Below, piece by piece: positions 1,805-38,431 of a stretch of DNA of 64,000 bases. The stretch spans positions 1,617-65,616 of the forward strand of contig CBDVAM010000002.1 in the NCBI GenBank assembly GCA_965371965.1, in the 5' to 3' direction. Position 1 is the first letter of the stretch, and the number at the start of each line of letters is the position of its first letter. Both the position numbers and the translations under genes were made by a program. The DNA is from an uncultured Phycisphaerales bacterium. Its GTDB lineage: Bacteria > Planctomycetota > Phycisphaerae > Phycisphaerales > UBA1924. Under the pieces are notes generated by a model. It did no database searches and had not been told where the DNA came from. It worked only from the letters and a program-made list of their open reading frames with translations.

Positions 1805-2708
1805 GGGCAGGTACCACAAACCCATGCCACTGACCCTTCCAAGGACCAGTGCTCCTCATCGCAACACCTACCCACCCAAGAAGCACTGACCATCCGAATG
1901 GTCAGCGGCACATCAATCCCCAACTCCCAAACGCAACTTTTCTCGCACGACACCCATCCCTCGTCCGCCACATCACGACCCTACACACCCTCCCCGTCGA
2001 CGCCGAGCACATCTGCGAAAACAATACCCCCATGATCGCAATCCAAACCCAACTCGAACCCGACCCGACCGAAACTCCAATCGACGCCCCTCCTCAAAAC
2101 CCCAGACCCGAATCCCCAGACCCCTCCCCCGACCCTCGACCCCCTACCCCCGACCCGTCGCCGTTCGGCGACCTCAACGAAGACGCCCTCCTCCGCGACT
2201 TCCTCACCGCCGACATCGACCTCCTCGACATCTGCGACAACCACGATCTGAAAATCACCCAGCTCGACGCCTGGCTCAACCAACCACGGATCCAACAAGC
2301 CCTCGAAACCCTCGAACGCATCAACGAAACACGCGAGCGCGCCATCCTCGCCCAGGCAAGACCCATCGCCGCCTACCGACTCCAGCAGGCCGCCGCCAGA
2401 GACCCTGCGCAAATCGACCCCAAACTCCGCACCACCCACGAATCCGCGCGCAAGGCCGCCGCCCAACTCCTCCGCACCCCCGACGTGCGCAGCAACGTCC
2501 CCACAAGAGGCCCTGGCGCAAGCCTGGGCTCCAATCCACCGAAACACACCATCAACCAACACCCAACCGATACGCCATCGTGTGCCCGAAAGCACAGCAC
2601 AGCACCACCGCGCCCATCGCCCGACACTATCGACGACCCTCAAGCCTCCTCGTTCGACCGCCCGTCACCCGCCCCACGGATCCATTCAACCAACTACACT
2701 CCATTCCA

Positions 2709-3176
2709 ATGCCCGACAAGCCCCCACAACCCTGGACATCCAACGCACCCTTCTCCACCCAGCGCATCCGCGCCGCAGCCGTCTACTGCTCCGACGGACG
2801 CTTCGGCGAGCAGTTCGATGACCTCTGCCACAACGCACTCGACCTCCCCCGCTACGACCGCCTCGCCGTCCCCGGCGGCGCGGCCTGCCTCGCCGGACAC
2901 TTCTCCGCCCACAGCGAAGAGCACTCCGTCGAACAACAACTCCGCTTCCTCATCGAGGTCCACGAGATCGAGCGGGTCGTGCTCATCGCCCACCAGGGCT
3001 GCGCGTACTACACCCACCGCCTCAACATCCACACGATCGACCTGCACGCCCGCCAGCTCGACGACCTCGCCCGCGCCACCACACATGTCCGGGGGCTCAA
3101 CGCCAACCTGCAAGTCGATGCCTTCTTCGCGGCCCTCGACGACGACCAAGTCACCTTCAACCAGATCGACGCCTAA
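2709..3176 (+). CDS. small protein (155 aa) with beta-carbonic-anhydrase-like CxDxR ... HxxC motifs
   Basis: ORF 2580..3176 with an internal ATG at 2709 (MPDKPPQPW...). Contains VYCSDGRF and LIAHQGCAYY, resembling the beta-CA zinc-ligand signature (C-x-D-x-R, H-x-x-C). It is shorter than typical beta-CAs, so the function is tentative. Confidence 0.45.
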   Translation: MPDKPPQPWTSNAPFSTQRIRAAAVYCSDGRFGEQFDDLCHNALDLPRYDRLAVPGGAACLAGHFSAHSEEHSVEQQLRFLIEVHEIERVVLIAHQGCAYYTHRLNIHTIDLHARQLDDLARATTHVRGLNANLQVDAFFAALDDDQVTFNQIDA

Positions 3177-3312
3177 CTCTCCACGCTCGAACGTCTCCCT
3201 ACGAGCCCGAAGCGCAAGCGAGCCTGCGACACTCCAAGCACTCGCCCGTCCCGCCATCTCCCCGCCACAAGACCTCTCCACTCCGTGCCACTCTGTGACA
3301 CTCCGTGGTAGT

Positions 3313-3660
3313 TCATATTTTTCGCTCTTCGTTCTTCGCTTTTCGCTCTCCCCCCCAGGGATCCTCCCGCCTCGGCCCGTACCACATGTCCAACCTCTCG
3401 CGTTTCTTCAACCGCCGCGTCCCGCCGACGAAGAGCTTGCCGATCTCGACGGACATCTCCCAGAACGAGTACGTCCGCAGCTTCCGCCCCGAGGTCACGA
3501 CCGCCGATGGAACCGACACATACCGCCCCTGCTTGCGCAGCCGGCGTGCCAGCAGGAGCTCCTCGTCGTGTGCTGGGATGACAAAGCTGACGAGCACATC
3601 GTCATGCCAAGCCCGGATCACCCAGAGGCTCATAGCGCAAGGCGACACCCCCGCCTTCAA
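3313..3660 (-). pseudogene. C-terminal fragment of a family-2 glycosyltransferase (TIGR04283-like); N-terminal catalytic part absent
   Basis: ...PAHDEELLLARRLRKQGRYVSVPSAVVTSGRKLRTYSFWEMS...LDMWY resembles the C-terminal 'EDxELsxRLrrxG...vTSxRr...' region of TIGR04283-type GT2 enzymes. No upstream GT-A domain exists; the ORF opens only at 3660. Confidence 0.45.
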
Positions 3661-3707
3661 GAAGGCGGGGGTGGGCCTGGTCAGAAAACACGACAGTCAA
3701 AAAGTGA

Positions 3708-4964
3708 TCAGCAGCCGATCACGAAAAGATCCAGGTACGCAAAGAAGTCGTTGGAATCGATGGTTCCGTTGCCATCAATGTCCGCCCTCGGATCATCGGC
3801 GGCAAAGAGATCCAGAAAGTCGAAGAAGTCGTCGGCATCGGCATCGCCGTCGCCGTCGATGTCGGCACCACAGTTCTTGGGCGGCGCGATCGCGTTGAAC
3901 AGCACGCTAGTCGTATTGCTGTCGCCATTCGGCACGGCCAGGTCGGCCATGGTGTCGCCGTTGAGGTCCGCGACGGCTATCTGCTGGGGAGCTGTGCCCG
4001 TGACGAACTGGACCGGCGCACCCAGCGTGCCGCCGAGGTTCTCCAGGCCGCTGACAAAGCTCAGATCCTCGTCGCCGACGACGACGTCGAGGTCGCCATC
4101 ACCGTCGAGGTCGACCGCGGCGATGTCGCCCGGGTTCTGCCCGCCGGTCGTGAAGAATGCCGGGCCGGTGAAGGTGCCCGCACCGGTGTTACTGAAGAGG
4201 TTGAGGAAATCGCCGGAGGCGAGTACGTCAACGTCGCCGTCGCCGTCCATGTCGCCGGTCTCGATCGAGCTCGGGCGCTGATTCGGTGTCGAGATGGACT
4301 GGGACATGCTGAACACGCCGGCGTTATTGGTGAAGAACGCCACGTCGCGGAGCTGGCGACGCCCTACGGCGAAGTCCAGATCGCCATCGCCGTCAAAGTC
4401 GCCGAAGTCTGCCCCGCCGGCCTCGTCACCGACCGAGACGTTGGTGGCGGTGAACACGCCGGCGTTGTTGACCAAGACCGAGACGCTGGCGCCGCTGCGA
4501 TTGGCGGTGAGCAGATCCATATCGCCATCGCCATCAACATCGCCCATTTTCATGGCGCGCGGCTCGCTACCGGTCGCGGCATCGCCCGCCGCACCGAACA
4601 CGCCGGCGGTGTTGGTATATACCCGCACGGTGTTCATGTTCTTGAGAACGACGGCGAAGTCTGTGTCGCCGTCGCCATCGAAGTCATGGGCCTGGAGCGT
4701 GTCGGCGCCGCTGTTCGCGCCGGTGAAGATCTCTGCGGTCTGGGTGAATACACCGGCGTTGTTGGTGAAGATGAGGACGCGGTCCGGTTGGGATACCGAG
4801 ACAGCGAGATCCATGTCACCGTCGCCATCCCAATCGCCCGCGGCGACACCGCCTGGGCGCTGCGCGGTCGCGAGGTTGGTTGCCGGGTCGAACGCCGGCA
4901 CTTCTGCGACCACCGAGGCCGCCAAGCCTGCCACGAGGATCGCACTGATTGTCTTTCTGGTCAT
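3708..4964 (-). CDS. secreted 7x FG-GAP (integrin-alpha-like propeller) protein with C-terminal Gly-Cys-terminated double-dockerin module (member A)
   Basis: ATG at 4964 (MTRKTISAILVAGLAASVVAEV signal peptide, AGGAG upstream). Seven repeats of type GDWDGDGDMDLAV / HDFDGDGDTDFAV. C-terminus NCGADIDGDGDADADDFFDFLDLFAADDPRADIDGNGTIDSNDFFAYLDLFVIGC*. Confidence 0.85.
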   Translation of the reverse strand: MTRKTISAILVAGLAASVVAEVPAFDPATNLATAQRPGGVAAGDWDGDGDMDLAVSVSQPDRVLIFTNNAGVFTQTAEIFTGANSGADTLQAHDFDGDGDTDFAVVLKNMNTVRVYTNTAGVFGAAGDAATGSEPRAMKMGDVDGDGDMDLLTANRSGASVSVLVNNAGVFTATNVSVGDEAGGADFGDFDGDGDLDFAVGRRQLRDVAFFTNNAGVFSMSQSISTPNQRPSSIETGDMDGDGDVDVLASGDFLNLFSNTGAGTFTGPAFFTTGGQNPGDIAAVDLDGDGDLDVVVGDEDLSFVSGLENLGGTLGAPVQFVTGTAPQQIAVADLNGDTMADLAVPNGDSNTTSVLFNAIAPPKNCGADIDGDGDADADDFFDFLDLFAADDPRADIDGNGTIDSNDFFAYLDLFVIGC

Positions 4965-5031
4965 GACTTCATCTCCTGTGTTTGAAGAGCTCGTTGATAC
5001 GCCGCACAGCGCGGCACCGATGAGTTGCATG

Positions 5032-5046
5032 GCAACTCGCGTGCCA
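5032..5046 (-). promoter_or_regulatory. sigma54 (RpoN) -24/-12 promoter, perfect core TGGCAC-N5-TTGC
   Basis: The minus strand reads TTTGGCACGCGAGTTGCC (reverse complement of 5031-5048). It is intergenic, ~68 nt upstream of the ATG at 4964 of member A. Confidence 0.7.
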
Positions 5047-5141
5047 AAGTCGCGTCACAGGGTGCGCCGGCGTCGCTCGCTGTCACGCAGCGCCGGGTGT
5101 CAAGTGACGATCGCCCCTGGCTTGCACTGGCCATGGCGATT

Positions 5142-5155
5142 GGCCAATAGTGTGG
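5142..5155. promoter_or_regulatory. candidate enhancer/UAS motif GGCCAATAGTGTGG (copy 1)
   Basis: About 100 bp upstream of the sigma54 element at 5032-5046. Near-identical motifs occur at 8830-8841 and, inverted, at 11530-11542. Overlaps the palindrome TTGGCCAA. Confidence 0.35.
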
Positions 5156-5239
5156 AAGCAAAGAGAAGACCGGAGCCCCATGGGCACCCGGCCTCCGGGT
5201 TTGAGTTTGCGCTGTCCGTTGCGACGGATCTACAACAAC

Positions 5240-6592
5240 TCAGCATCCGGTGACGAAGAGGTCGAGATACGCAAAGAAGTCGTCGGCGTCGATGTCGCCA
5301 TCGCCGTCGATATCTGCGGCGGGGTCGTCGGCGGCGAACAGATCGAGATAGGTGAAGAAGTCGTCGGCGTCGGCATCGCCGTCACCGTCGAGATCGGCAG
5401 CGCAGCCCAGAGCCGGATCGTCGTACCCGACGAGGTGGATGTCTCCACGCCCGGCGCCGAACGACCACGCCGTCCCGCCGACGACGATCTTGTCGGTGCC
5501 GACGGCCACGGACCATGCCCGGTCGTCGGATACACCCCCGTCAGTCTCGCTCCAGAGCTCGACGCCGTTGGCGTCTGTGCGGACGATGTACATGTCCGCG
5601 CCGCCCGCGCCGAACGAGCCGGTCATGCCTACGAAGATGAACCCGCCGTCGGGCATTACACGCACGCATTGGCCCTTGTCGTCGGCGCGCCCGTCTCCGA
5701 AGATCCGCGTCCAGATGGGCTCTCCCAGGTCATCGGTGCGAACGAGGGCCATATCGGAATCGCCCGACTGGTTCGCGAAACTCCCGGCGAGGACAAAGCC
5801 CCCGTCGGCGAGTTCGCGGATCGAACTCAGGGTGCTGGAGCCCCCGCCGTTGTTGTGCGTCTGGTCCCAGATCGCAACGCCGAGCTCATCTGTGCGGATC
5901 ACCCACCAATCCCAGATTGGGCCTTGCACGAACCCGCCGATGATGTACCCGCCGGTGGAGACCTCTTCAATCGCGAGCGCAACGTCCGAGCCTGCGTTGG
6001 GGCCATCGTCGTACTCGTAGGTTTGCGCCCATTGCTGGATGCCGTTTGCGTCGGTCTTGACCACATACATGTCGTAGCTGCCGAAGTCGCCGTCGAGGAA
6101 CCACGTCTGCCCGGCGATGATGAAGCCGCCGTCGGATGTGAGAGCCAGGGCGTGCGCTCTGCTGTCTCTGCCCGCGTCGTAGGTCCTCTCCCACAGCAGG
6201 CCGCCGTTGGCGTCTGTCCGGATGAGGAAGGCTCTGAATGAGCCGTTTCTCCCGGTCCTTCCGGCGATCGCGTACCCGCCACCGGGCAGCTCTTTGACAT
6301 CGGCCCCGTAGTTATGGAAGTCCGATAGGTTATCGAATGTCCGCGACCACTCCTGGTCGCCGTTGGCGTCGGTCTTCACGAGGTACACGGCTATGCCCGA
6401 GTTGGGTGAGAACGATCTGCTGAACCCGACGGCGATGTACCCGCCATCGCGCGTCGCCTCGATCGCGAATGCCCCGTCCTCGCTTTCGCCGCCATAATCG
6501 CGTGTGAAGAGAACGTCTTGGGCGCGTGCCCCCGGGGTGCCGCCCGCGACCAGCACCGCGGCGAAGACCATGAGTTTTCTCTGAGCGTGCAT
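5240..6592 (-). CDS. secreted beta-propeller repeat protein with Gly-Cys double-dockerin module (member B)
   Basis: ATG at 6592 with AAGGAG 7 nt upstream. Signal peptide MHAQRKLMVFAAVLVAGGTPGARAQ. Six to seven ~50-aa repeats (TDANGxxxW...DGGYIxxG). C-terminus GCAADLDGDGDADADDFFTYLDLFAADDPAADIDGDGDIDADDFFAYLDLFVTGC*. Confidence 0.85.
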   Translation of the reverse strand: MHAQRKLMVFAAVLVAGGTPGARAQDVLFTRDYGGESEDGAFAIEATRDGGYIAVGFSRSFSPNSGIAVYLVKTDANGDQEWSRTFDNLSDFHNYGADVKELPGGGYAIAGRTGRNGSFRAFLIRTDANGGLLWERTYDAGRDSRAHALALTSDGGFIIAGQTWFLDGDFGSYDMYVVKTDANGIQQWAQTYEYDDGPNAGSDVALAIEEVSTGGYIIGGFVQGPIWDWWVIRTDELGVAIWDQTHNNGGGSSTLSSIRELADGGFVLAGSFANQSGDSDMALVRTDDLGEPIWTRIFGDGRADDKGQCVRVMPDGGFIFVGMTGSFGAGGADMYIVRTDANGVELWSETDGGVSDDRAWSVAVGTDKIVVGGTAWSFGAGRGDIHLVGYDDPALGCAADLDGDGDADADDFFTYLDLFAADDPAADIDGDGDIDADDFFAYLDLFVTGC

Positions 6593-6641
6593 GATGATGC
6601 TCCTTGAGACTGTCGGGTGTGGACCCGGTGCCGGTCGCTTC

Positions 6642-8774
6642 TTAGCAGCCGGCCGCGAAGAGATCGAGATACGCAAAGAAATCGTCGGCATCGATGTCGC
6701 CATCGCCATCGATGTCGGCGGCGGAGTCGCCAGCGGCGAAGAGATCAAGGTAGGCGAAGAAGTCTTCTGCGTCGGCGTCGCCATCGCCATCAAGGTCGGC
6801 CGCACAACCGATGCTCGGCATCAGGACCGTTGCCACGCCCTCGCTGATCTGGCTGAGCCAGAGACGGCCGTTCGCGTCGAACTCGACGTCGCCGAGCTGA
6901 TGGTGGGTCATGGGCGAGTCCTGCCTCGTGAAGATCGTCCACGACTCGTGGTCGTTGATGTCTCCGGAGACAAAGCAGAGCCCGTGGGGGAAGGGGGCCT
7001 GGTTCTCGAAGGTGTGCGCGCTGAGGGCCATGAGTCCGTCATCACGGAAGTCGATGCCGCTGATCGAGATGCCGGGCAGTGGCGAGTTGGTTGTGTCGTA
7101 GAGGGTGAACTGCTTGCCGTCGAATCGGACGAGGCCGTCCACCATGCCGAGCCAGAGGGTGTCGTCGGGACCGATCTTCATCGATCTGATGCCTCCGCGT
7201 TCGAAGATGATATTGAACTCAGTGGCGTCCCAGTCAGTCCAGGTTGTGCCATCGAATCGATGGAAGCTCAGTCGCGATGCGACCCACATGTTTCCTTGGC
7301 TATCAGACTCGATGCCGATGACGATCCCATGGGGAGGCAGGTCGCCAAGCGAGTGGTGCTCCCAGTCATTGCCGGCTTGGCCCCAGAGGCCGCTGTAGTC
7401 TCCGCCGATCCACATGCGCCCGTTGGGATCCTCGCCGATGGCCTGGAAGATCTCGACTCCCAGGCTGCTGTTGCGCCAGTCCCAGATCTGGAAGTCGTTG
7501 CCATCCCATGCGCCGACGCCGTTGGAGCCCATCCAGGGGATCCCATCGCTATCCTCAAAGATGCCGTGTGCCTGCTCGGCGAGGAAGGGCCAAGGATTCT
7601 GTTGCCCGTTGTGCATCCCCCAGTTTTGCCAGCTCTGGTGATCAAACCTGCTCATGCCGGCCTCGCCGGTGGCAACCCACATGTTGCCGGTGGGGCCGCT
7701 ATAGAAGTTGTCGATGAAATAGTCCGGGATGCCGGTGTTATATGAGTTGAATGCCTCGAGCCAGGCGCCGGAGGCGTTGAGATGGCGCGAGGCACCCGGG
7801 GTCGTGACCCAGATGTCGCCGTTGTCGGCGAAGGCGAGCGAGGTGATCCGGATGCCCTGATTGGTGAACTCTTGCCAGGTGCTCCCTCCGTCACGCGAGC
7901 GAGCCACCTGGCCGAACCAGTTGGCAAGATAGACCGCGCCGTCGGGCCCGACCTCAACGGCGGTCGTGGTCGTATTCGCGAGCCCGGTGACGTCGCCGAA
8001 ATAGGCCTCATACTGCCCTGTCGAGCGATCGAAACGGTAAAACCCGTTGCCGCCGCCAACGTCTGCTCTCATCCATATGTCGCCATTGTGATCTTCGTGG
8101 AGGTCGGTAAATCGCGATGGGCCGTCGTGGAAGATCCAGTCGGTGCCGTCAAACTCCGCCAAGCCGGCGAGCACCTTATTGCCGACGAAGACGTGCCCGT
8201 CGCCGGCAACGACGATTGAACTGAGCGCGTCCCAGATCTCGTCCCAGGGCATTTCAATACCCGTCTCGTACTTGGTCCAGTTCACACCGTCGAACTCGAA
8301 GATCGCGTGATTGGTCCGCTGTACGCCGGTGTTGTTGATCCAGACGTGCCCGTCGGCGTCCAGGTCGATGTCCTTGATCCTGTTGTGGCGCAGCGGCGAG
8401 TTGCTCGTGTTGTACACCGTCCACTTGTCGCCATCCTTGTGGACCAGTCCGCCCTCGGTTGCGATCCAGATCGAGCCGTCTTGTGCGAACTCGATGTCGT
8501 CTATGAACTCGCTGGGAATCGGCGTCTCCCAGTTGGCCCATGTTTCCCACGTTTGTGTGGTGAAGTCATAGATCCCGAGGCCGCCTTCGCGCCAGAAGGG
8601 CCAGCGTGCCGCAACCCAGAGGCGCCCATCTGGCCCGAAGGTGTTGAAGCGAGCTTCCTCGCCGGGTACGCCGGTGTTGCTGGGCTTGAGGATCTTCCAG
8701 TCCTGGGCCATCGCTCCGCAGGCCAGCGCCCCAAGGGACGCCGCTACCAATGTCATACTCCACTTCCGTTTCAT
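6642..8774 (-). CDS. secreted two-component-regulator-propeller (Reg_prop-like) repeat protein with Gly-Cys double-dockerin module (member C)
   Basis: ATG at 8774. Signal peptide MKRKWSMTLVAASLGALACGAMAQ. Repeats of type DGxxWIATxxGLxxxDGxxWTxY typical of Reg_prop propellers. C-terminus GCAADLDGDGDADAEDFFAYLDLFAAGDSAADIDGDGDIDADDFFAYLDLFAAGC*. Confidence 0.85.
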   Translation of the reverse strand: MKRKWSMTLVAASLGALACGAMAQDWKILKPSNTGVPGEEARFNTFGPDGRLWVAARWPFWREGGLGIYDFTTQTWETWANWETPIPSEFIDDIEFAQDGSIWIATEGGLVHKDGDKWTVYNTSNSPLRHNRIKDIDLDADGHVWINNTGVQRTNHAIFEFDGVNWTKYETGIEMPWDEIWDALSSIVVAGDGHVFVGNKVLAGLAEFDGTDWIFHDGPSRFTDLHEDHNGDIWMRADVGGGNGFYRFDRSTGQYEAYFGDVTGLANTTTTAVEVGPDGAVYLANWFGQVARSRDGGSTWQEFTNQGIRITSLAFADNGDIWVTTPGASRHLNASGAWLEAFNSYNTGIPDYFIDNFYSGPTGNMWVATGEAGMSRFDHQSWQNWGMHNGQQNPWPFLAEQAHGIFEDSDGIPWMGSNGVGAWDGNDFQIWDWRNSSLGVEIFQAIGEDPNGRMWIGGDYSGLWGQAGNDWEHHSLGDLPPHGIVIGIESDSQGNMWVASRLSFHRFDGTTWTDWDATEFNIIFERGGIRSMKIGPDDTLWLGMVDGLVRFDGKQFTLYDTTNSPLPGISISGIDFRDDGLMALSAHTFENQAPFPHGLCFVSGDINDHESWTIFTRQDSPMTHHQLGDVEFDANGRLWLSQISEGVATVLMPSIGCAADLDGDGDADAEDFFAYLDLFAAGDSAADIDGDGDIDADDFFAYLDLFAAGC

Positions 8775-8829
8775 CAGATGTACCTCGTTCGTTTCTCTCT
8801 GTGGCGAGCGGCTCTGCCGACGCCAAGAA

Positions 8830-8841
8830 CCAATAGTGTGG
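8830..8841. promoter_or_regulatory. CCAATAGTGTGG motif (copy 2)
   Basis: Exact 12-mer shared with 5144-5155. Intergenic, ~56 nt upstream of the ATG at 8774. Confidence 0.25.
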
Positions 8842-8903
8842 GCGGACGAGTCACCTCGCCTCTCACGCCCGGGACCGGCTGCCACGGCCCCTCCCCTAGA
8901 AAA

Positions 8904-10994
8904 TCAGCAGCCCGCTGCAAACAGATCTAAATACCCAAAGAAATCGTCGGCGTCGATGTCGCCATCGCCATCGATGTCGGCGGCGGGATCGCGGGTGGCG
9001 AAGAGATCGAGATACGCGAAGAAGTCGTCGGCATCGATGTCGCCGTCGCCATCGAGGTCGGCGGGACACGGGGTCGCGGTGGAGATGATGCGGCCGCCCC
9101 ACCCGGCTGCCCAGAGGTCGCCCGAGGGCGAGGCGTCGAGCTGAGCCGGGTTGTAGGGGAACAGGGAGTCGCGGCTGCGGATCCAGGTCTGCCCGCCGTT
9201 GACGGTGTGGAGCGTGATCGGTTGGATCTGGCGATCGACCCCGACGACCCAGACCTCATTGGCGCTGATGACCGCGACACCCATGGCGACGCGGACCTCG
9301 TGGTTGTTGCCGAAGTCGAAGGTCTGCCATGTCCGCCCGCCGTCGAGTGTGCGTGCGGCGTAGTCCCACCATCCGACGGCCCAGCCGACGTTCTCGTCGA
9401 TGAACTGCATGTCCTGGATGGTGGGGTTGTCGCCGAAGTAGACGTCGGGCAGCGTGACGTCCTGCCATGTGTTGCCTCCGTCATCGGTGCGGTGCAGGAT
9501 GCCGCCGAGGCGCATGATCCAGCCCTTGTCCTCACCGATGAACTGGATGAGCTCGAAGGCTGCGCCGTCGAACGGGCGGAACCAGGTTTGCCCGCCGTTG
9601 AGCGTGCGGTAGATGGATTCTTGCGTTCTGAACATGTCTCGATTGGAACCGACGACCCAGATGTCGTCGGGGGTTCGTGCGGCGATATCCCTGATGTCGA
9701 GATCGACGGGCAGGCGTCCACCACTGCTGATGGGCATCCAGTTCTGCCCCGCGTCCACAGACTTGAACACCGTGCCGCCGGGACCGGCGATAAAGGCGTT
9801 CTGATCGTCGAGAATGTCAACAGCGTTGAGTGATTCGTCGAAGCCGAACTCCTGGCCCCGGATCTCCGGCTTCTGGACGGTCCAGTGGGTGCCCCCGTCG
9901 GTGGTCCGCATCACATAGGTATTGCGGGCGACGGCGATTCCATACCTGTCGGTGTGCATCTCGATGGCGGTGATATCCATGCCGATGCCGTTGGTGATGT
10001 ACTGCCAAGTCTGCCCCCCGTCGCTGGTGCGATAGATGATGCCGCGAGCGCCCGTGAGGATCCCGACCCCTGCGTCTGTGAAGTTGAGTTCCCAGGTGTA
10101 CGGCAGATCGCCGATGGCGTCGAGCGTCTTGGTCCAGGTGGTGCCGAGGTCGTGGGAGAGCCAGACATCGCCCTGGTGGGAGGCCCCGGCGATCGTAAAC
10201 TCGTCGACGAGCGCGAGATCGTTGAGTGGGCCGTCCTCCTCGAACTCCTGCGAGACCGCGGCCCAGGATTGCCCGCCATCGGTCGAGCGATAGACCTGCC
10301 CGGGCAGGACTCCCGTCGCCACCGCCGTGTTCTGATCGACGTACATGACGTCGTTGATGACCGCATCGAGGACGTGTGTCCAGGTTCGCCCACCATCGGT
10401 AGTCCTAAAAATCCCGTCCAGATCGTCGGGGATCTGATGGCCCGACACGAGACCGATCTCGGCGTCGATGAAGTCTGAGCCCCAGGCAATCGGGCAGTCG
10501 GGCCATCCCAAGCGCAGTTCCCAGGTCTGCCCGCCGTCGGTCGTGCCCGCGCAGGCGCCGTTGGCCATGAAGATGCCGTGGGTCGGGCTCTCGAAGTCGA
10601 TGAACCTCCACGAGCCCGCCATGCCAGGCATGGGCGTCCAGGTCTGGCCGCCATCGGTGGTGCGCAGGGCGTCGGAGTTGTTGCCGGTGACCCAGCCGTG
10701 GTTCTCGTCAATGAAGAAGACGTCGTAGTAGGGATTGGTGCTGTGAGCCTCGAGGTTGCGCTCGATCCAGGTCCGCCCGCCGTCGAATGTCTCGAAGAGC
10801 GCTCGGTTGCGGCCGACCATGAAGCCGTGCAGCGGTGTGGCGAACGCCACGCTGTTGAGGTCACGGTCTGTGGGAAGCACGCTCTGCCTGGTCCATTGTG
10901 GCTGTGCGTTTGCGAGGGAGGCAGCGCCAGCGATCGCAAGCAGCCAGGAGAACGCGAGAGTGTTCAGGGTTCGGCTTGTCCGTTGGGTCTTCAC
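8904..10994 (-). CDS. secreted BNR/Asp-box (sortilin/Ycf48-like) propeller protein with Gly-Cys double-dockerin module (member D)
   Basis: Many SxDxGxTW boxes (TDGGQTW, DGGRTW, TDGGTHW...). The GTG at 10994 has a strong SD (AGAGGAGGAG) and gives a clean signal peptide (KTQRTSRTLNTLAFSWLLAIAGAASLANA/Q). An alternative ATG lies at 11024. C-terminus PCPADLDGDGDIDADDFFAYLDLFATRDPAADIDGDGDIDADDFFGYLDLFAAGC*. Confidence 0.85.
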   Translation of the reverse strand: MKTQRTSRTLNTLAFSWLLAIAGAASLANAQPQWTRQSVLPTDRDLNSVAFATPLHGFMVGRNRALFETFDGGRTWIERNLEAHSTNPYYDVFFIDENHGWVTGNNSDALRTTDGGQTWTPMPGMAGSWRFIDFESPTHGIFMANGACAGTTDGGQTWELRLGWPDCPIAWGSDFIDAEIGLVSGHQIPDDLDGIFRTTDGGRTWTHVLDAVINDVMYVDQNTAVATGVLPGQVYRSTDGGQSWAAVSQEFEEDGPLNDLALVDEFTIAGASHQGDVWLSHDLGTTWTKTLDAIGDLPYTWELNFTDAGVGILTGARGIIYRTSDGGQTWQYITNGIGMDITAIEMHTDRYGIAVARNTYVMRTTDGGTHWTVQKPEIRGQEFGFDESLNAVDILDDQNAFIAGPGGTVFKSVDAGQNWMPISSGGRLPVDLDIRDIAARTPDDIWVVGSNRDMFRTQESIYRTLNGGQTWFRPFDGAAFELIQFIGEDKGWIMRLGGILHRTDDGGNTWQDVTLPDVYFGDNPTIQDMQFIDENVGWAVGWWDYAARTLDGGRTWQTFDFGNNHEVRVAMGVAVISANEVWVVGVDRQIQPITLHTVNGGQTWIRSRDSLFPYNPAQLDASPSGDLWAAGWGGRIISTATPCPADLDGDGDIDADDFFAYLDLFATRDPAADIDGDGDIDADDFFGYLDLFAAGC

Positions 10995-11228
10995 GGTCTC
11001 CTCCTCTTTCGCAGGCACCAGCATCAACCGACCTGCGTGCGGGCACCCCACGAGCGACGCCACCCTGCGGCCCGTTCGCAGGGAGCGTGATGCGTTGGCC
11101 CCGCCCTGCGGTCTCGTCGGATGATGCCCGGCGAATCGCGCTGGGGGCGAGTTCAAGGGCGAGTCGGGCGATTTCTCATCTCGCTCGCCGGGACAGGTCG
11201 CCGGGGCTGGGTCCCGGAAGAGGAGAGA

Positions 11229-11357
11229 TTAACCTCTATCTGCAAAGAGGTCGAGGTATGCGAAGAAATCGTCGGCGTCGGTGTCGCCATCGGCAAGGGC
11301 CATTGGATCTGCGCCGACGATGACTGCTGCCAGAGCCCAACTCTTCTTACAGATCAT
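11229..11357 (-). CDS. 42-aa mini-ORF: signal-peptide-like N-terminus plus one dockerin repeat
   Basis: Hand-translated because it is below the ORF-track cutoff: MICKKSWALAAVIVGADPMALADGDTDADDFFAYLDLFADRG*. GGAGA lies 3-4 nt upstream of the ATG. It sits ~50 nt downstream of the sigma54 element at 11419-11433. It could be a functional peptide or a decayed family member. Confidence 0.4.
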   Translation of the reverse strand: MICKKSWALAAVIVGADPMALADGDTDADDFFAYLDLFADRG

Positions 11358-11418
11358 TTCCGGTCTCCATGTCGCTTGAGGACGACGGCTCGCCGAAACC
11401 TCCGACGCTTAGTCATGT

Positions 11419-11433
11419 GCAATGCGTGTGCCA
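11419..11433 (-). promoter_or_regulatory. sigma54 (RpoN) -24/-12 promoter, perfect core TGGCAC-N5-TTGC
   Basis: The minus strand reads TTTGGCACACGCATTGCA (reverse complement of 11418-11435). It is intergenic, upstream of the mini-ORF and of members D-C-B. Confidence 0.7.
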
Positions 11434-11529
11434 AACGCTCGCACATGGTCATTCCGCGATGATCCGGCCCCAAGCGGTGGTGTTCGTCTGCGAGATTCGG
11501 CCGTCTTGTTCAACCCGCGACGGGCAGCG

Positions 11530-11542
11530 CACAATATTGGCC
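11530..11542. promoter_or_regulatory. candidate enhancer/UAS motif (copy 3, inverted): CACAATATTGGCC = reverse complement GGCCAATATTGTG
   Basis: About 100 bp upstream of the sigma54 element at 11419-11433, the same spacing as copy 1 relative to 5032-5046. Contains the palindrome CAATATTG. Confidence 0.35.
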
Positions 11543-11629
11543 GGATCCGTTGTCCGGCAGCGACGGGTGCCGTGCTCTAGAACTCGCAATCGGCGTGTTC
11601 AACCGAAAGCAGGTCGCGCCGAACTCACG

Positions 11630-13189
11630 CTACGGGCATCCCATCACGAACATGTCGAGGTAGTAGAAGAAGTCGTTGGAGTCGATAATGAGATCGGGCA
11701 GGCCGTACTCCGAGGAGTCCGGGTCGGAAGACCCCGTCATGTCGGCCTCGGCCAGGCTGTCGCTCGAGAACTGGTCGAGGTAATAAAAGAAATCGTCGCC
11801 ATCGACGTCGCCGTCGGGAACGCCATAGCTTCCATCGCCAGAGTTCGATGACCCGGTGAGATCGCCCCGGCAGAAGAGACCCCGGTCTTCGAACTCAATC
11901 ACGGAGTTGCCATCAAGATCAAACAGGCTGAAGTTTGGTCCGCATCCGGGCACGACCACCCGCCCGTCCACCCGCCCGTCGGCGTCGCACGAGGTCCCGT
12001 CGAGCGCGGCGAGCGCGTCCTCATACTCTCTCACGTCCTGGCCATTGACTCGCTCGTCGGCGTTGAGATCACACGGTCGCACGTCAAAGCCGACATCGGT
12101 CCAGACATACAGCCCGTCTTCCTGCTTCGCATACGACGTGCCAAACAGCGCGGTGACGTCCCATTCGCTCGGCTCCAGTGCATCCTCGGCCTTCTTGTGT
12201 TCCCATCGCTCGGTGAGCACCTCGACCTCGCCATTGAGGCCCCCGGCATGGTCGATCAGATCCTGGACCGCCTCGATGACGCTGTGATGGCTGAACGGGC
12301 CGATCTCGTAGTCGATTGGCTCCTCGGGCTCGCCGGTGAGCTGCGCGGCACCAGCCATCGTCAGCGCCTCGACCAGCGTGATGGTCGTCGTATCGGTCGC
12401 GATGTCGTGGCTGAATCGAATGTTTACTTTCGGATCATACAGTCCGAAGTCGGTGCCGCCGAAGACCTCGCTGGCGTCCTGATATCCCGCGGCCCGCTGA
12501 AAGTACCGGCTGCGAACGACCCAGGTCTCGCCGGCCTCGAAGGTGTCGTCCTGGTCGCCGCCGGCCTTGGATTCGATCGTCACCCTATGGCAGCCGCAGA
12601 GCACCAGCGAGAAGTCCTCGCCCGATCGCTCGAAGAAGGGCTCGGTCCAGAAATCAAGATCGTGGTCCCCACATCCGCCCGGCCCGGCGCCGCTGCGCGC
12701 TGCACGCTCGCCGATGTCATCGCCGGGAAGCCCGCCGAATCGCCCGACATTCGCCAGGAATCGGAGTTCGGCGGCTCCCCCGAGCTCTCCGCCGGTGTCC
12801 TCGTCATGATCGACGTCGAACTCGAGGAACCCGAGCACGGGGCTCGGTCCAAAGATGAATGCCTCAAACGGACCGCCCCCGATGCCGACTCTGCCCGAAG
12901 GATTCACAAGGCCAACGAAGGAAACGTCCAACCGAAAGAGTTCAGCGTCGTCGTCGTCCTCCACCTCGCCGGTGTACGGATCGATAAGAGCGTCGTCCGC
13001 TCGCCAGCCGCTGAGGGTCACCCGCAGCACGTCCGGCAGATTGCTCAATGGATTCAGCGCCGCGACGCACCCGGTATCGGTCCGCCGGACTGTTGCGTCG
13101 CCGAACCCATCGACGAACCTCGCGACGTCGTCGCTCGCCGTTGCGCCGAGGCACGCCACCGCCGGAACACACCACGCCCATCGCCTCAT
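11630..13189 (-). CDS. secreted protein of unknown N-terminal fold with divergent Gly-Cys-Pro double-dockerin module (member E)
   Basis: The ATG at 13189 overlaps the TGA of the upstream response-regulator gene (ATGA). Signal peptide [19 protein letters not shown]-terminus ...FCRGDLTGSSNSGDGSYGVPDGDVDGDDFFYYLDQFSSDSLAEADMTGSSDPDSSEYGLPDLIIDSNDFFYYLDMFVMGCP*. Confidence 0.8.
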   Translation of the reverse strand: MRRWAWCVPAVACLGATASDDVARFVDGFGDATVRRTDTGCVAALNPLSNLPDVLRVTLSGWRADDALIDPYTGEVEDDDDAELFRLDVSFVGLVNPSGRVGIGGGPFEAFIFGPSPVLGFLEFDVDHDEDTGGELGGAAELRFLANVGRFGGLPGDDIGERAARSGAGPGGCGDHDLDFWTEPFFERSGEDFSLVLCGCHRVTIESKAGGDQDDTFEAGETWVVRSRYFQRAAGYQDASEVFGGTDFGLYDPKVNIRFSHDIATDTTTITLVEALTMAGAAQLTGEPEEPIDYEIGPFSHHSVIEAVQDLIDHAGGLNGEVEVLTERWEHKKAEDALEPSEWDVTALFGTSYAKQEDGLYVWTDVGFDVRPCDLNADERVNGQDVREYEDALAALDGTSCDADGRVDGRVVVPGCGPNFSLFDLDGNSVIEFEDRGLFCRGDLTGSSNSGDGSYGVPDGDVDGDDFFYYLDQFSSDSLAEADMTGSSDPDSSEYGLPDLIIDSNDFFYYLDMFVMGCP

Positions 13190-14670
13190 GACGTTCTCTC
13201 CGCGATCTCTCGAACCTTGTCCTCGAGCCCGTACCGCTCGATGCGATACCGGAAGCTGCTCCGCTGCATGCCGATGAGCTTGGAGGCCTTGGAGACGTTG
13301 CCGCGGGTGTGCTCGAGCGCCTGGAGCATGAGGGCCTGCTCGACCTGGTCCACCTTGTGCATGCCTCGCTCGAAGTCGAATCTCGGCGTGCCGCCGATGG
13401 GCGTCGCCTTGCCGTTGCTGTGCTCTATGCCCGCCCGCGGATGGGCGATCCCGATATCCGCGGCCTCGACCATCTTGGTCTCGCTCAGCATCGCGGCCCG
13501 CTGGATCGCGTTGGCCAGCTCTCTGACGTTGCCCGCCCAGCGGTGCGAGAGGATCGCCGACTCGCACGCCGGCGACAAATCCAGTCCATCGCGCCCGTAG
13601 CGAGCGCCCATGTCTTCCAGGAGTTCGCGTGCAATCAGCAAGGCATCCTGCTCCCGCTCGCGTAAGGGCGGGATCTCGATCGGGAATGCTGCGAGGCGGA
13701 AGAACAGGTCTCGCCGAAACTTGCCGTCCTCGGCGAGCGACTCAAGCTCCTGGTTTGACGCTGCGATGACCCGCGCCCGCACCTTGCGCTCGCGCGATCC
13801 GCCGACGCGCCGGAACGTGCCCTGCTCGACAACGACGAGCAGCTTGGCCTGGAGCTCCAGCGGCATCTCGCTGATCTCGTCAAGAAAGATTGTGCCGCCA
13901 TCGGCCATCTCGAACAGCCCGGTGCGCGAGGTCCGTGCGTCGGTGAAGGCGCCCTTCTCGTGCCCGAACAGCTCGCCCTCGACGAGGCTTGCCGGCAGCG
14001 CCGAGCAGTTGACGTGGACGAACGGCGGCTCGTCCTTGGTCGATGATGGCTGGCGTTCGACCGCCATGTCGTGGATGTATCGAGCGAGCACACCCTTGCC
14101 AACGCCGGTCTCGCCGAGCAGCAGGATTGTGGGCAGGGCCCCGCCGGGATCGGCGCCCAAGGGCATCTGCGCGAGGCGTGCGGACAGATCGAGGCACTTG
14201 AGCCAGGCCGCGCTCTGTCCCAGGACCTTCCGCCCCTGCTCGCGCGTCCGTTCCAGACGCTCGTACAGCTCGACCTTCTGGCTCAGTCGGCGATGCTCCA
14301 GCCACCTGGGAAGCTGGATCAGCAGCTCCTCGATGACGATGGGCTTCTGGAGATAGTCGTTGGCCCCATCGCGCATCGCCTCGACGGCGTGCTCGACGCT
14401 GCCGTAGGCCGTCATCACGATGATGACCCCGTCGAAGCCGTCGGCACGCAGCTCGCGCACGAACTCCAGCCCGTCTTCTTCGCCCAGATGTACGTCGGTG
14501 AGAACGAGGTCCAGGCTCTCCCGTTGCGACACGCCCCGCGCCGATCCGATCGACTCGCCCTCAAACACCTCGTGCCCGGCCTTTGTCAGCGATCGAGAAA
14601 CAGAGAATCTCAGGTTCTCTTCGTCCTCAATAATGAGAATCCTGGCCACCGTCTGCTCCTGACTGGCCAT
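13186..14670 (-). CDS. sigma54-dependent response regulator (NtrC family: REC + AAA+ EBP + Fis-type HTH)
   Basis: REC domain ([11 protein letters not shown]...DLVLTDVHL). Walker [18 protein letters not shown]-loop variant [28 protein letters not shown]-terminal [29 protein letters not shown]. Start taken at ATG 14670, overlapping the HK gene end by 44 nt; the start is uncertain. Confidence 0.9.
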
Positions 14671-16219
14671 TATTGGCCAGGCTTCCTGTCTGCACCTGAT
14701 CGGGCAAGACCAGGGAGAACCTCGCTCCCGTGCCATGAGCCTCGCCCGAACCACCGTCACTGGACGTACCGAGGCTCTCGACCTCGATTCGCCCGCCGTG
14801 TCCTCTCACCGCATGGAGTGCAGATGCAAGTCCGATGCCAGTCCCCTGCTTCTTCGTCGTGAACGACGGACGGAAGAGGTTCGGGAGCACTTCGTCGGAT
14901 ATTCCCGCCCCCTCGTCGGTTATCGACACTGTCCATGAGCCATCGGTCGCTGATGGGGCTATACGGACAACTCCGCCCTTTGGGGTGGCCTCGATGGCAT
15001 TGGCCAAAATAGCCGCCAAGGCGTGCCCCATGTGGTCCGGGTCGAACACGCGGGTGCTCATGGCCCGCGCGCCGCCAAGATCGCACTCGATCGCCACCCC
15101 CCTTGAGGCCGCCATCGGCTCGTGGGCCTGGATCACGCCCCGAAGCCACGATTCCACAGACACCTCACGACAATCCAAGTCGGCGGGGGAGGTCGCCCGC
15201 AGCAGGCGGTTGAGCCACTCCTCGAATCGGTCCACCGCATCGATGATCCGACGCTGGCTGTCCTTGAGATCCTGGTCCTCGACCTCCTGATGGGTCATCT
15301 CGGCGAGCCCGCGAATACCTGAAAGGGGATTGCGGATGTTGTGGACCAGGCGGCGCATCATCTGCCCGACGGCGACGAGGCGCTCTCGCTCGATGCGCTC
15401 TTCCTGGCTCCGCTCGACCAGCCCGGCCATCAGATTCACCTCGCGAGCCAGGGTCGAGAGCTCGTCCTTGCCCCGCGGATGCAGGCGATAGGAGAACTCG
15501 CCGGCACCGATGCGTTCGGCGGCGACGCGGAGCTCCTCGATCGGTCTCACGACCCAGCGACCGACCAGCGAGAGGCTGAGCAGCCCGACCAGCCCGGCGA
15601 GCACCGCGACCAGACCCAGCACCGCGATGAGGCGTACGCGGAGCTGGGACTCGAACGCCTCGGCAAAATTGGTGTCTTCGAGGACGCGCCCCTCGATCTT
15701 CTCGATCAACTCGTGGATCTCAAAGAGCGCAAGCCCGGCTCGGCGGCGAGCGACATCATCCTGGGACTCTCCCCATTTCATGGCGTCGGTGTGGGTATCC
15801 TCGATTCGCCTTCGCAGGTTCCGCTGACGCAGGATCACCGACTCGCCCTCTCTTGCACGAATGCGCCAGCGCTCTGCATGCTGGAGAACATCCAGTTGGG
15901 ACTTCATCTGGTTGGTGCGTGCACCAAACGCGTCGGCATCGAACTCCGGTGGCTCGCCAGAACGCTCGCCCCGCACGCCATGCCCCTCGGATTCTGGAGC
16001 TGTGTCGCCCCAGCTTGGCTCTCCGAGCAGCATCGTCGCCTGTGCCTCGGCACCGCGCTTTATTGTTCGCAGTGACGTCAGCACGCTCGCCATGTTCTGG
16101 GCGGGACGCGAGACCTCTCGTTCAATGATCGCGAACGACGACCACGCCGAGGCGAGGCTGACAAGCACCGCGAGGCCGAACATTGCGAGGAGGATCACGA
16201 ATCGCCGACGGATGGTCAT
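14627..16219 (-). CDS. sensor histidine kinase (2 TM, ~170-aa periplasmic region, HAMP, HisKA, HATPase)
   Basis: TM1 FVILLAMFGLAVLVSLASAW, TM2 LIAVLGLVAVLAGLVGLLSLSLVG, then a HAMP domain. H-box VHNIRNPLSGIRGLAEM. G-boxes DEGAGI / GTGIGL. Confidence 0.9.
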   Translation of the reverse strand: MTIRRRFVILLAMFGLAVLVSLASAWSSFAIIEREVSRPAQNMASVLTSLRTIKRGAEAQATMLLGEPSWGDTAPESEGHGVRGERSGEPPEFDADAFGARTNQMKSQLDVLQHAERWRIRAREGESVILRQRNLRRRIEDTHTDAMKWGESQDDVARRRAGLALFEIHELIEKIEGRVLEDTNFAEAFESQLRVRLIAVLGLVAVLAGLVGLLSLSLVGRWVVRPIEELRVAAERIGAGEFSYRLHPRGKDELSTLAREVNLMAGLVERSQEERIERERLVAVGQMMRRLVHNIRNPLSGIRGLAEMTHQEVEDQDLKDSQRRIIDAVDRFEEWLNRLLRATSPADLDCREVSVESWLRGVIQAHEPMAASRGVAIECDLGGARAMSTRVFDPDHMGHALAAILANAIEATPKGGVVRIAPSATDGSWTVSITDEGAGISDEVLPNLFRPSFTTKKQGTGIGLASALHAVRGHGGRIEVESLGTSSDGGSGEAHGTGARFSLVLPDQVQTGSLANNGQSGADGGQDSHY

Positions 16220-16246
16220 GGGCGAGGTCTGCCGAGCGGGGCGCGA

Positions 16247-17002
16247 TTATCGCAGGGGCGGCTGATAGCCCCAATCGAGCGAATCTTCGAGCGGGTGGCG
16301 GGTCGAGCGAACGCTCCCGTCGATAAACGTCAGGTTCATCGAGCCGGCGTGGCGCATGCCCGGGAACCAGTAGCGGTCTCGCGCGAACGGCCCCTGACTA
16401 TCCAACGATGGGCCGGAAAACACCGGTGACACTTCGTTCTCTTCCGCAACCGCGCCATCGACATCCCACATCAGCGGCACGAGGGAGTGTAACAGAATCT
16501 CGGAGGTCAGTTCGACGGGGCGAACCCCGACGCGTCCGTCGCGAACCTGCTCGCCCCAGTGCATCCGCACATTGAATCCGTAGGAGATGTTCTCTGGGGG
16601 CGCGACGCCGCCGCGCGAGCACGGCGCCTGACGTCGGAGCTCGACCGGGCCTTCGACTTCGGGGCAGCGCATCGGATCGCTGCCCTCGTAGGGGAGTTCC
16701 ACTAGTTGCTTCGCTCCCCAACTCCAGAACTCATCGATCCCGTATTGAGTTTCCTGGAACGTCTCAAGGCGAAAGCGGTCTCGTGAGAGTTGATCCTCGT
16801 CGTCGCCTCGGTTGCCGTGGAGTGCGTCGTCGGCGAAGATCGAGAAATCAAACGCGACGGCTCGCTGCGCCATCTGGCATCGGAACGAGCGTGCCGAGGT
16901 CCTCGCCCCACCGAGCGCAGGCAGCATGAGCGACATCAACACCGCGATGATGGCGATGGTGATGAGCAACTCGATCAGCGTGAATCCGCCGTGCCTTCTC
17001 AA
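16247..17002 (-). CDS. prepilin-type N-terminal cleavage/methylation protein with H-X9-DG motif (DUF1559-like)
   Basis: N-terminus GGFTLIELLITIAIIAVLMSLMLPAL. C-terminal HAGSMNLTFIDG (H-X9-DG). Only 27 nt upstream of the HK gene on the same strand. Confidence 0.85.
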   Translation of the reverse strand: MRRHGGFTLIELLITIAIIAVLMSLMLPALGGARTSARSFRCQMAQRAVAFDFSIFADDALHGNRGDDEDQLSRDRFRLETFQETQYGIDEFWSWGAKQLVELPYEGSDPMRCPEVEGPVELRRQAPCSRGGVAPPENISYGFNVRMHWGEQVRDGRVGVRPVELTSEILLHSLVPLMWDVDGAVAEENEVSPVFSGPSLDSQGPFARDRYWFPGMRHAGSMNLTFIDGSVRSTRHPLEDSLDWGYQPPLR

Positions 17003-17160
17003 GCGGTCTCCTGACGCAATGCCCCCCTGGACGATTCACAGAGGATACGGGGCATGGACCACGATCGCAACCGCATTATTCGTCCGAAAAGCCACAACTC
17101 GGTCATTATCTCGTTTGGCGGTAGTTCTGGCCAGTCCGAGAAAGTTCTGAGCGTCGTCGC

Positions 17161-18003
17161 TTACCCCCCTAGACGGGTGATCGAGATCGATCCGTTGCTG
17201 CTGCGGATCCGCGACTCGCCGCCCTCACCGGGCGTTCCGAGGGCGGACTGGGCGTGCAGCGTGCAGCTCCGGCGGCTCTTCTCGGTGATCTCGCCCGGCT
17301 CGAAACCAACGAGGCTGACAGACCCATTGGAGGTCCTTGCGGCCAGCTCGCCCGCGAACGCGCCGCCGACGGTCACATGGACCGAGCCGTTGGATGTGTC
17401 AATATGGACCGGCCCGCTCGAGGCGTCGGCGAGATCCACCCGAACGGCCCCGTTGCTGGTGTCCACGTTCACCGAGCCGATGATCTGGGCCAGCACGACC
17501 CGCCCGTTGCTGGTGTCGGCGACCACGTTGCCGTCGTGGTTTTCGACATGGATCCGTCCGTTGCTTGTTCTCATGGTTGCCTCGCCTGCGGCTCCAATGA
17601 GCGTCAGCGAGCCGTTGGAAGAGACGAGTGTCACGCCGTACGCGCTGGGCAGGCGGATGTCGAAGCTGCAGCCCTCGCTGCTCTTGCGCCCGCCCTCGGG
17701 CCACACGACCCGCAGGTACAGGGTCCCGTCGTCGAGGCGAGAGGCGACGACCTCGGTCAGGTCGAGGCGTTCCTGGGTCATCGCCTTGAGGTGGGCGTCG
17801 ATCTCGACGCTGTCGACCTCGACGACCTGCACGTCGATGGCACCGTTCTTGGTCTGGATATCCAGGGCGGTGCCGGGCTGGTGATCGACCATGAGCTGGC
17901 GGGTTTCCTTGAACCTCGCCTGCTGCCACGCGAAGTTGCACCCATTGAGTGCTGTGAGCGAGCAGACGAGCACGGCGTACACGCAACGGCGGGTCATGGA
18001 CAT
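17161..18003 (-). CDS. lipoprotein with DUF4097-like beta-strand repeats (putative adhesin fold)
   Basis: Lipobox LTALNGC. Repeated TSNGxV/I...V motifs (TSNGRIHVE, TSNGRVVLA, TSNGAVRVD, TSNGSVHVT, TSNGSVSLV, SSNGSISIT). Confidence 0.75.
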   Translation of the reverse strand: MSMTRRCVYAVLVCSLTALNGCNFAWQQARFKETRQLMVDHQPGTALDIQTKNGAIDVQVVEVDSVEIDAHLKAMTQERLDLTEVVASRLDDGTLYLRVVWPEGGRKSSEGCSFDIRLPSAYGVTLVSSNGSLTLIGAAGEATMRTSNGRIHVENHDGNVVADTSNGRVVLAQIIGSVNVDTSNGAVRVDLADASSGPVHIDTSNGSVHVTVGGAFAGELAARTSNGSVSLVGFEPGEITEKSRRSCTLHAQSALGTPGEGGESRIRSSNGSISITRLGG

Positions 18004-18124
18004 GGCAATCTCCTGAGGCTGATCAAGACCGGATGGCGCAGGCCATGAGCCCCACCGACAGGCGTGTTGGGATCGTCACCGGTTGGATTTCATTATCCCG
18101 GCGAGGGTCGCCGAGGTGGTGGGA

Positions 18125-18592: not shown

Positions 18593-18608
18593 GAGTAATC
18601 CTCCCGCA

Positions 18609-38415: not shown

Positions 38416-38431
38416 TAAAACCCTGGTTCTC

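Follow-up and report, generated by a model that had tools for sequence, protein, structure and literature searches.

Within a 64 kb window of chromosomal DNA from a member of the Phycisphaerales (Planctomycetota, ~64% G+C), we identified four contiguous genes, encoding a pseudopilin-like protein (PP), a sensor histidine kinase (HK), an NtrC-type response regulator (RR), and an orphan protein predicted to be exported (E), which precede on the same strand an array of genes (D, C, B, and A) for beta-propeller proteins that share a C-terminal GC-type dockerin tag. We consider it fairly probable that these four genes form a Phycisphaerales-specific cassette governing a local sigma-54 regulon, whose Sec-exported propellers would carry a disulfide-clamped, calcium-binding dockerin and would dock onto a receptor in the cell envelope. 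The core of this reading, namely a sigma-54-dependent and locally regulated set of putatively Sec-exported GC-dockerin proteins, is strongly backed by the sequence comparisons presented below. A preliminary description of the same DNA had proposed a sigma-54 regulon of tagged proteins, and promoter sites and comparative genomics uphold this for A-D, but not for E or for two further tagged proteins encoded elsewhere in the window (F and G).

In the mechanism we propose, HK would sense an extracytoplasmic cue, as its domain architecture suggests, and phosphorylate RR, which would bind TGGCCA-type boxes located ~65-110 bp upstream of sigma-54 promoters directly downstream of the operon and activate them. 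One promoter (P1) would drive a mini open reading frame (mini-ORF) relic together with D-C-B and the other (P2) would drive A, while E would be co-expressed with the regulator, without a sigma-54 promoter of its own. The products would be Sec-exported, binding-type beta-propellers (BNR, Reg_prop, SBBP-like, and FG-GAP) bearing a 54-aa dockerin tag that, by analogy with characterized dockerins, most likely docks them non-covalently and calcium-dependently onto an envelope receptor. The tag family (NF041540) and the classical NtrC/sigma-54 logic were already known, and the regulatory cassette appears to be undescribed; new here are the PP-HK-RR-E operon, its link to GC-dockerin cargo, a candidate activator box, the orphan fold of E, and a cysteine-pair explanation of the “GC” ending. 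The cassette would give the GC-dockerin tag its first candidate regulator, and a single switch with defined promoters and a candidate box provides an experimental handle on a small set of tagged proteins. Such a tractable regulon would help explain signal-driven remodelling of the envelope or surface in planctomycetes.

The regulatory cassette

The four cassette genes lie on the minus strand at 16247-17002 (PP, 251 aa), 14627-16219 (HK), 13186-14670 (RR), and 11630-13189 (E, 519 aa), and the coordinates confirm the single-strand order PP-HK-RR-E-mini-ORF-D-C-B-A that had been described previously. PP and HK are separated by 27 nt, HK and RR overlap by 44 nt, and the TGA of RR overlaps the ATG of E as ATGA (13189-13186), an overlap that had also been read correctly at 13186-13189. 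Because these junctions are gaps of at most 27 nt or overlaps, including the ATGA, and because the gene order is conserved, we take PP, HK, RR, and E to form one operon. Its promoter is presumed, on weak evidence, to be a sigma-70-like candidate in the gap upstream of PP (TGGCCA-17-GATAAT, 17105-17133, minus strand), which matches 9 of 12 consensus positions, no better than shuffled sequences.

The identification of a sensor kinase and an NtrC-type sigma-54 activator is borne out by the Pfam domain sets of the two proteins. HK is a membrane sensor histidine kinase with two transmembrane segments, a ~190-aa periplasmic region without family match, and HAMP, HisKA, and HATPase_c domains, and RR is an enhancer-binding response regulator of the REC, AAA+, and HTH_8 type, with matches to REC (193 bits), Sigma54_activat (80 bits), AAA_lid_14, and HTH_8 (47.5 bits). 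The sigma-54 contact loop of RR reads GAFTDA, a variant of GAFTGA in which the F and T are retained; the same loop is found in all orthologues recovered, and in 12 of the 66 unrelated enhancer-binding proteins (EBPs) that were fetched. RR fails every NCBIfam equivalog cutoff, including those of AtoC (339 vs 714 bits), ZraR (237 vs 760 bits), PrsR (TIGR02915, 291 vs 503 bits), NtrC, and others, and would therefore represent a distinct orthologous group, and HK similarly falls under all equivalog cutoffs (76 vs 300 bits for PrsK, TIGR02916). The ZraSR, AtoSC, and PrsK/PrsR systems share with this pair a HAMP-HisKA kinase, a REC-AAA+-HTH_8 activator, a -24/-12 promoter, and an upstream site around -100, whereas the GAFTDA loop and the fixed presence in the operon of the pseudopilin-like PP and the orphan E distinguish the system described here. 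In PEP-CTERM/exosortase loci, PrsK/PrsR are also found alongside secreted proteins that share a C-terminal tag. A link between the cassette and PEP-CTERM/exosortase systems was considered and rejected, since RR and HK fail the PrsR and PrsK cutoffs and the exosortase locus of the window (47.5-49.5 kb) is not syntenic with the cassette.

PP had been described as a DUF1559 pseudopilin-like protein, a designation of which only part stands. Its prepilin-type N-terminus (G|FTLIE) matches N_methyl (PF07963, 34 bits) and TIGR02532 (28.8 bits), and a C-terminal H-X9-DG motif (HAGSMNLTFIDG) can be recognised by eye in the translated sequence, but the hidden Markov models (HMMs) of DUF1559 (PF07596) and of the H-X9-DG family TIGR04294 returned zero matches to PP at E ≤ 0.01.

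The cassette is conserved well beyond the window. A genome scan seeded with RR recovered nine Phycisphaerales loci (L001-L009; 53-80% identity), with PP-HK-RR present in 9/9 and an E orthologue directly after RR in 8/8 of those having downstream sequence. Five additional loci looked up from E (40-47% E identity; soil, marine TARA, and other metagenomes) all encode a small protein followed by HK, RR, and E, with the 4-nt RR/E overlap retained in four of them, and a metagenome scan seeded with the E family yielded 56 loci. Of the 40 that were testable, 36 have RR immediately before E, the four exceptions corresponding to one rearranged locus and three distant E paralogues (33-35% identity). A PP orthologue precedes HK in L001-L009 and in most metagenome loci, and the PP-HK-RR-E order is kept down to ~38% E identity. 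The genes found after E vary, from D, C, B, and A in the window to A only in many loci and to unrelated genes in about half, A being the most frequent member of this cargo; in L001, E is followed by three other dockerin proteins, an orthologue of C (73% identity), and then a Kelch+Ig protein. Hence the PP-HK-RR-E cassette is conserved, and the propeller array is variable and optional.

E had been counted among the sigma-54-driven array genes, but is instead the fourth gene of the cassette, co-operonic and translationally coupled with RR. The protein consists of a ~370-aa orphan N-terminal domain, an EF-hand-like segment, and a divergent GC(P) dockerin. An AlphaFold2 (AF2) model based on 93 homologues reached a predicted local distance difference test (pLDDT) score of 94.8 and a predicted template modelling (TM) score of 0.92; the N-terminal domain of this model had no match among Protein Data Bank (PDB) folds (best E 0.57, TM-score <0.2), and comparison to PDB sequences identified relatives of E only via the dockerin/EF-hand tail. 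Residues 1-370, searched with phmmer against 1.84 billion representatives, retrieved 203 proteins, nearly all 480-530 aa long and with the same architecture, and invariant positions of E include C-G-C at 198-200 along with several Gly, Trp, and Asp residues. NCBI applies the name “GC-type dockerin domain-anchored protein” to E homologues in other Phycisphaerales metagenome-assembled genomes (MAGs). Judging from these searches, E forms a compact orphan family that is restricted to this lineage and tied genetically to the regulator, and it is best explained as a constitutive component, i.e. an adaptor, a co-sensor, or a founding cargo, as opposed to an induced target.

The GC-type dockerin tag and its cargo

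The array genes, all on the minus strand and all encoding a C-terminal GC dockerin, comprise D (8904-10994), a BNR/Asp-box (Ycf48/sortilin-like) double propeller, C (6642-8774), a Reg_prop-type beta-propeller, B (5240-6592), an SBBP/DUF5122-like repeat propeller with sub-threshold scores, and A (3708-4964), a seven-repeat FG-GAP propeller. Earlier fold assignments were thus correct for A, C, and D, while the PQQ-like fold first suggested for B found no confirmation. The likely start of D is a GTG at 10994, behind GGAGGAG, with an alternative in-frame ATG at 11024, and a terminator-like hairpin and T-run (3704-3722, minus strand) overlies the stop codon of A and would mark the end of the unit. 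The two other tagged proteins of the window, F (39760-41034), which contains HAF repeats, and G (41084-42556), an FG-GAP_2 propeller with a GC(P) dockerin, are encoded ~25 kb away on the plus strand, outside of the cassette.

A-G all pass the curated cutoff (29 bits) of the NCBIfam family dockerin_GC (NF041540), with scores of 45.5 (A), 50.9 (B), 53.9 (C), 55.9 (D), 73.5 (E), 46.0 (F), and 41.5 bits (G), so that the RefSeq family name given in the preliminary description, again “GC-type dockerin domain-anchored protein”, proved correct. The ~55-aa C-terminal module said to be common to the whole array is indeed present in A-E, but the 42-aa mini-ORF (MICKKSWALAAVIVGADPMALADGDTDADDFFAYLDLFADRG; 11229-11357, minus strand) consists of a signal-like N-terminus and the first module half only, and at 22.9 bits it fails to reach the cutoff. 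All seven tails of A-G start with a Cys and end in G-C (five proteins) or G-C-P (E and G) at the extreme C-terminus. Six of the seven modules are collinear over 54-55 aa and follow the pattern C-x-A-D-x-D-G-D-x-D-x-D-x-(D/E)-D-F-F-x-Y-L-D-x-F, repeated twice, and the divergent module of E has 12-residue insertions in both calcium loops. Mean column identity between modules is 56% at the protein level, and the corresponding DNA is ~75% identical with scattered synonymous differences, which suggests that the modules are kept by protein-level selection and not by recent gene conversion.

Structure prediction, which the preliminary description had suggested as a check for a dockerin or EF-hand-like fold, gave a model compatible with such a fold. 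The AF2 model of the D tail (pLDDT 86.7) displays two helices, each following an Asp-rich loop, and among compact Foldseek matches to it, the dockerins 2y3n_B, 2ozn_B, and 2vn5_D rank highest (TM-score 0.56-0.62, root-mean-square deviation 2.3-2.6 Å). The E-family profile agrees, as it matches the dockerin 2y3n_B with an E-value of 9.7e-6. By model and by profile, the tag would therefore be a dockerin-like module with two loops and two helices. In the dockerin fold, loop 1 begins next to the point where the final helix ends. Of 111 full-length module matches, 99 have both terminal cysteines, 6 have a single one, and 6 have none, and A holds exactly two cysteines, which are the first and last residues of its module (C365 and C418). 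Since the two cysteines co-occur and the fold brings both ends together, a disulfide clamp is the most likely explanation for the “GC” ending, and such a clamp would imply an oxidising, extracytoplasmic location. The N-termini of A-E resemble, by eye only, Sec signals with an AxA followed by Q, E, or S.

The location of the tag could also be read differently, as the module finishes at most 3 residues before the protein C-terminus in 108 of the 111 matches and the NCBI family name contains the word “anchored”. This would be expected of a C-terminal sorting or processing signal comparable to those of PEP-CTERM/exosortase, GlyGly-CTERM/rhombosortase, LPXTG/sortase, or type IX secretion (C-terminal domain-like) systems, instead of a cohesin-binding dockerin; however, the tail includes neither the hydrophobic or transmembrane segment nor the basic tail typical of sortase, exosortase, and rhombosortase signals. 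The terminal Cys might in that case serve for covalent or lipid attachment, yet its occurrence is correlated with that of a second Cys 53 residues earlier, as expected for an intramolecular disulfide, and E orthologues lacking both cysteines retain the double-dockerin repeats. A prepilin-type protein is invariably co-encoded, which could place PP in a type II secretion-like export route, and an exosortase locus is found in the same window (47.5-49.5 kb) where no cohesin was seen; the exosortase is, however, 30 kb away and not conserved with the cassette, and fold and profile matches correspond to true dockerins. Overall, a sorting signal seems unlikely, and we favor a dockerin that binds an envelope receptor.

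Whether the tag is carried by enzymes was also considered, as the preliminary description had stated that no enzyme domain is attached to it. This is the case in the window, where no enzyme domain was detected above cutoff, A-G included, but a related Phycisphaerae MAG (locus L007) encodes a GH57 protein with CBM53/CBM25 and a dockerin tail (13198-16233, minus strand), as well as a 1092-aa PD40/HZS_alpha-like protein with a dockerin tail (16286-19561, plus strand), these tails ending in GC or CP. The tag is therefore not confined to non-enzymatic cargo. Within the window, D scores 97.6 bits against a BNR “glycosylhydrolase” family with a cutoff of 175, so that catalysis is conceivable for this protein.

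Non-cellulosomal dockerins are widespread and poorly understood. The NF041540 family model corresponds to the same C-terminal, Gly-Cys-ending domain as in A-G and covers the tag only, and its record includes none of the regulation, partner, Cys-Cys pairing, or cassette described here. Many Phycisphaerae genomes have annotated GC-type dockerin proteins, for which we found no published function, partner, or regulator; in the literature, zero papers contained the term “GC-type dockerin”, and none joined dockerin, Planctomycetes, and sigma-54. The type I/II dockerins of clostridial and Bacteroides cellulosomes (2y3n, 2vn5, 2ozn) resemble the tag as modelled in having a duplicated calcium-loop and helix unit of ~55-60 aa at the C-terminus of secreted proteins. 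In contrast to cellulosomes, the window encodes no cohesin or scaffoldin among its scanned ORFs and belongs to a Gram-negative-type planctomycete, its propeller cargo is non-enzymatic and probably under a dedicated sigma-54 two-component control, and the tag features a terminal Cys pair and no Dockerin_1 match. The closest proposal in the literature is the “planctosome” of freshwater Nemodlikiaceae (Phycisphaerae; Andrei et al. 2019, ISME J, PMC6461901), a hypothetical cohesin/dockerin assembly distinct from cellulosomes, which involves peptidase cargo and cohesin-bearing anchor or adaptor proteins, and no regulator, whereas the window combines propeller cargo with a conserved two-component system-E cassette and no cohesin was seen in it. 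One speculative and unlikely extension is that the N-terminal domain of E serves as a non-cohesin docking platform for the dockerins of A-D, with the dockerin of E binding a second anchor, possibly PP. If true, this would amount to a two-tier inducible “planctosome” with a scaffold co-expressed with its own sigma-54 switch.

Sigma-54 promoters and candidate activator boxes

Two exact TGGCAC-N5-TTGC elements occur in the 64 kb when both strands are scanned, against 0.06 expected, and none of 100 shuffles yielded two or more. Both are on the minus (array) strand in the two longest gaps of the array, as the preliminary description had reported, and represent candidate sigma-54 promoters: P1 (TGGCACACGCATTGC; 11419-11433, read 11433-11419) lies 197 nt past the E stop codon, and P2 (TGGCACGCGAGTTGC; 5032-5046, read 5046-5032) lies 68 nt before the A start codon. 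No site was detected in the D-C (129 nt) and C-B (49 nt) gaps even with up to 2 mismatches, and the likely units are therefore P1 with the mini-ORF and D-C-B, and P2 with A. Similarly, no sigma-54 site was found for F or G, hence sigma-54 control belongs to the neighbourhood of the cassette and not to the tag family as a whole. A third, sigma-54-like site with one mismatch (3551-3537) falls within a coding remnant located past the A terminator and was therefore judged to be due to chance. The mini-ORF, located in the P1 leader, is probably the relic of a deleted array gene, and no counterpart was seen after the equivalent promoter in L001. A class of stand-alone mini-dockerin genes was also considered and rejected, as short module-search matches mostly look like gene-calling fragments and give no support to the mini-ORF.

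Related loci point to the same arrangement. Across 313 kb of these, 6/6 exact -24/-12 sites are found just after E or the cassette, on the cassette strand, and a -24/-12 element precedes every A orthologue found (~11 lineages: the window, L005/6, L008, L081, L083, L085, L086, L089, L090, L092/96, and L126), exact in five and with one mismatch in the others. The metagenome set contains 12 sites at most 700 nt after E, nine of which precede a complete ORF with a double-dockerin tail and a terminal Cys; six of these nine ORFs are caught by the module HMM, and in most the N-terminus resembles a signal peptide. A tenth, which is the A orthologue of L090, is truncated by the contig end before the tail. 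Sigma-54 regulons have been reported for Planctomycetota, including Phycisphaerae (PMC12316311). In the best-supported reading of these comparisons, A would be the core and most conserved sigma-54 target, and the remaining array a variable accessory set.

Candidate binding sites for the activator were spotted by eye as (T/C)GGCC(A/G) boxes recurring ~65-110 bp upstream of the -24 element, with two TGGCCA boxes at -100 and -87 for P2 and one CGGCCA box at -110 for P1. The box is present in 9/9 promoters of the first set vs 19% in the background, and among 11 held-out promoters fetched after the motif had been defined, one box or more was found in 8 (p 4e-5) and two or more in 5 (p 3e-6), paired boxes often being 20-22 bp apart. 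These boxes are thus statistically supported as putative upstream activating sites of RR, with the position and geometry expected for an EBP site.

Planctomycetes encode many EBPs, and around half of the cassettes lack an adjoining sigma-54 site, so that RR must have other or distant targets in these genomes. The sigma-54 promoters could then be genuine but activated by an EBP encoded elsewhere, with HK-RR controlling itself and E, or distant genes. We consider this quite unlikely, as at least 15 lineages, covering a protein identity range of 38-80%, have a promoter and dockerin gene directly behind the cassette, and as the shared upstream box travels with cassette-adjacent promoters, both of which argue for local control by RR.

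Several results nonetheless weigh against the regulon and docking reading as a whole. On the regulatory side, RR is linked to the promoters by adjacency and a motif, the box was defined post hoc, and an unbiased k-mer screen for a motif shared upstream of the first seven promoters was non-significant relative to shuffles; rpoN is absent from the scanned ORFs of the window, and neither a sigma-54 site nor a dockerin gene adjoins E in about half of the cassettes. For the tag, no cohesin was matched among the scanned window ORFs, signal peptides were assigned by eye only, and the Foldseek E-values of the 64-aa module (0.27-2.9) are non-significant, the query being short. The HMM check of the C-termini was likewise divided, as NF041540 was matched by A-G but Pfam Dockerin_1 (PF00404) by none of A-E at E ≤ 0.01; many E homologues do have a precomputed PF00404 match. 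It is finally improbable that the module is an EF-hand-like folding or stability element or calcium buffer without docking partner, on propellers forming a calcium- or envelope-stress-responsive periplasmic set. This reading draws on the A2 profile, whose sequence-level matches to the EF-hands of calmodulin and calcineurin-B equal or surpass those to dockerins, on the weak EF-hand_6 match in C, and on the failure to find a receptor. Against it stand structural matches to dockerins and not to four-helix EF-hand pairs, as well as the confinement of the module to the C-terminus and its near-identity across unrelated folds, which suggest a shared partner under selection.

Other features of the window

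Genes for MurC, MurB, Ddl, and GreA are located just upstream of the array region. Positions 1-3700 have an unusual composition, with 58% G+C over 1-2000 and a GC skew of -0.30 and AT skew of +0.19 over 2001-4000. The ORFs in this interval include a 533-aa frame without family match (203-1804), a spurious-looking Pro/Ser/Thr-rich frame of 810 codons, and what appears by eye to be the C-terminal remnant of a glycosyltransferase (3313-3660), and the interval may represent an insertion or a decayed stretch next to the array.

The genes of F and G belong to a second cluster of secreted FG-GAP/HAF proteins (38375-42556, plus strand), in which they follow a gene for an untagged FG-GAP_3 protein, and which includes neither a two-component system nor a sigma-54 site. 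The exosortase gene mentioned above, an EpsH type under all specific Xrt cutoffs (47467-48642), is part of a complete-looking exosortase/exopolysaccharide locus (45885-60106, plus strand) that also encodes a DUF3485/EpsI-like protein, a polysaccharide export protein, a 1527-aa TPR protein, chain-length and AAA_31 kinase-like proteins, an epimerase, and a GT4 glycosyltransferase. No Rfam family was detected across the whole window.

Between the array and these loci, the minus strand encodes an 834-aa protein (34686-37190) with no Pfam match and weak coiled-coil (SMC/Rad50-like) NCBIfam matches. A small protein with a NikA-like mobilisation domain (43601-44158, minus strand; 33 bits), found beside a radical-SAM/lipoyl-synthase-like gene, may be the trace of a mobile element. 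Outside the window, locus L083 (1-1916) encodes an RHS/YD-repeat toxin with an AHH nuclease along with an Imm11-like immunity gene, ~3 kb upstream of its cassette.

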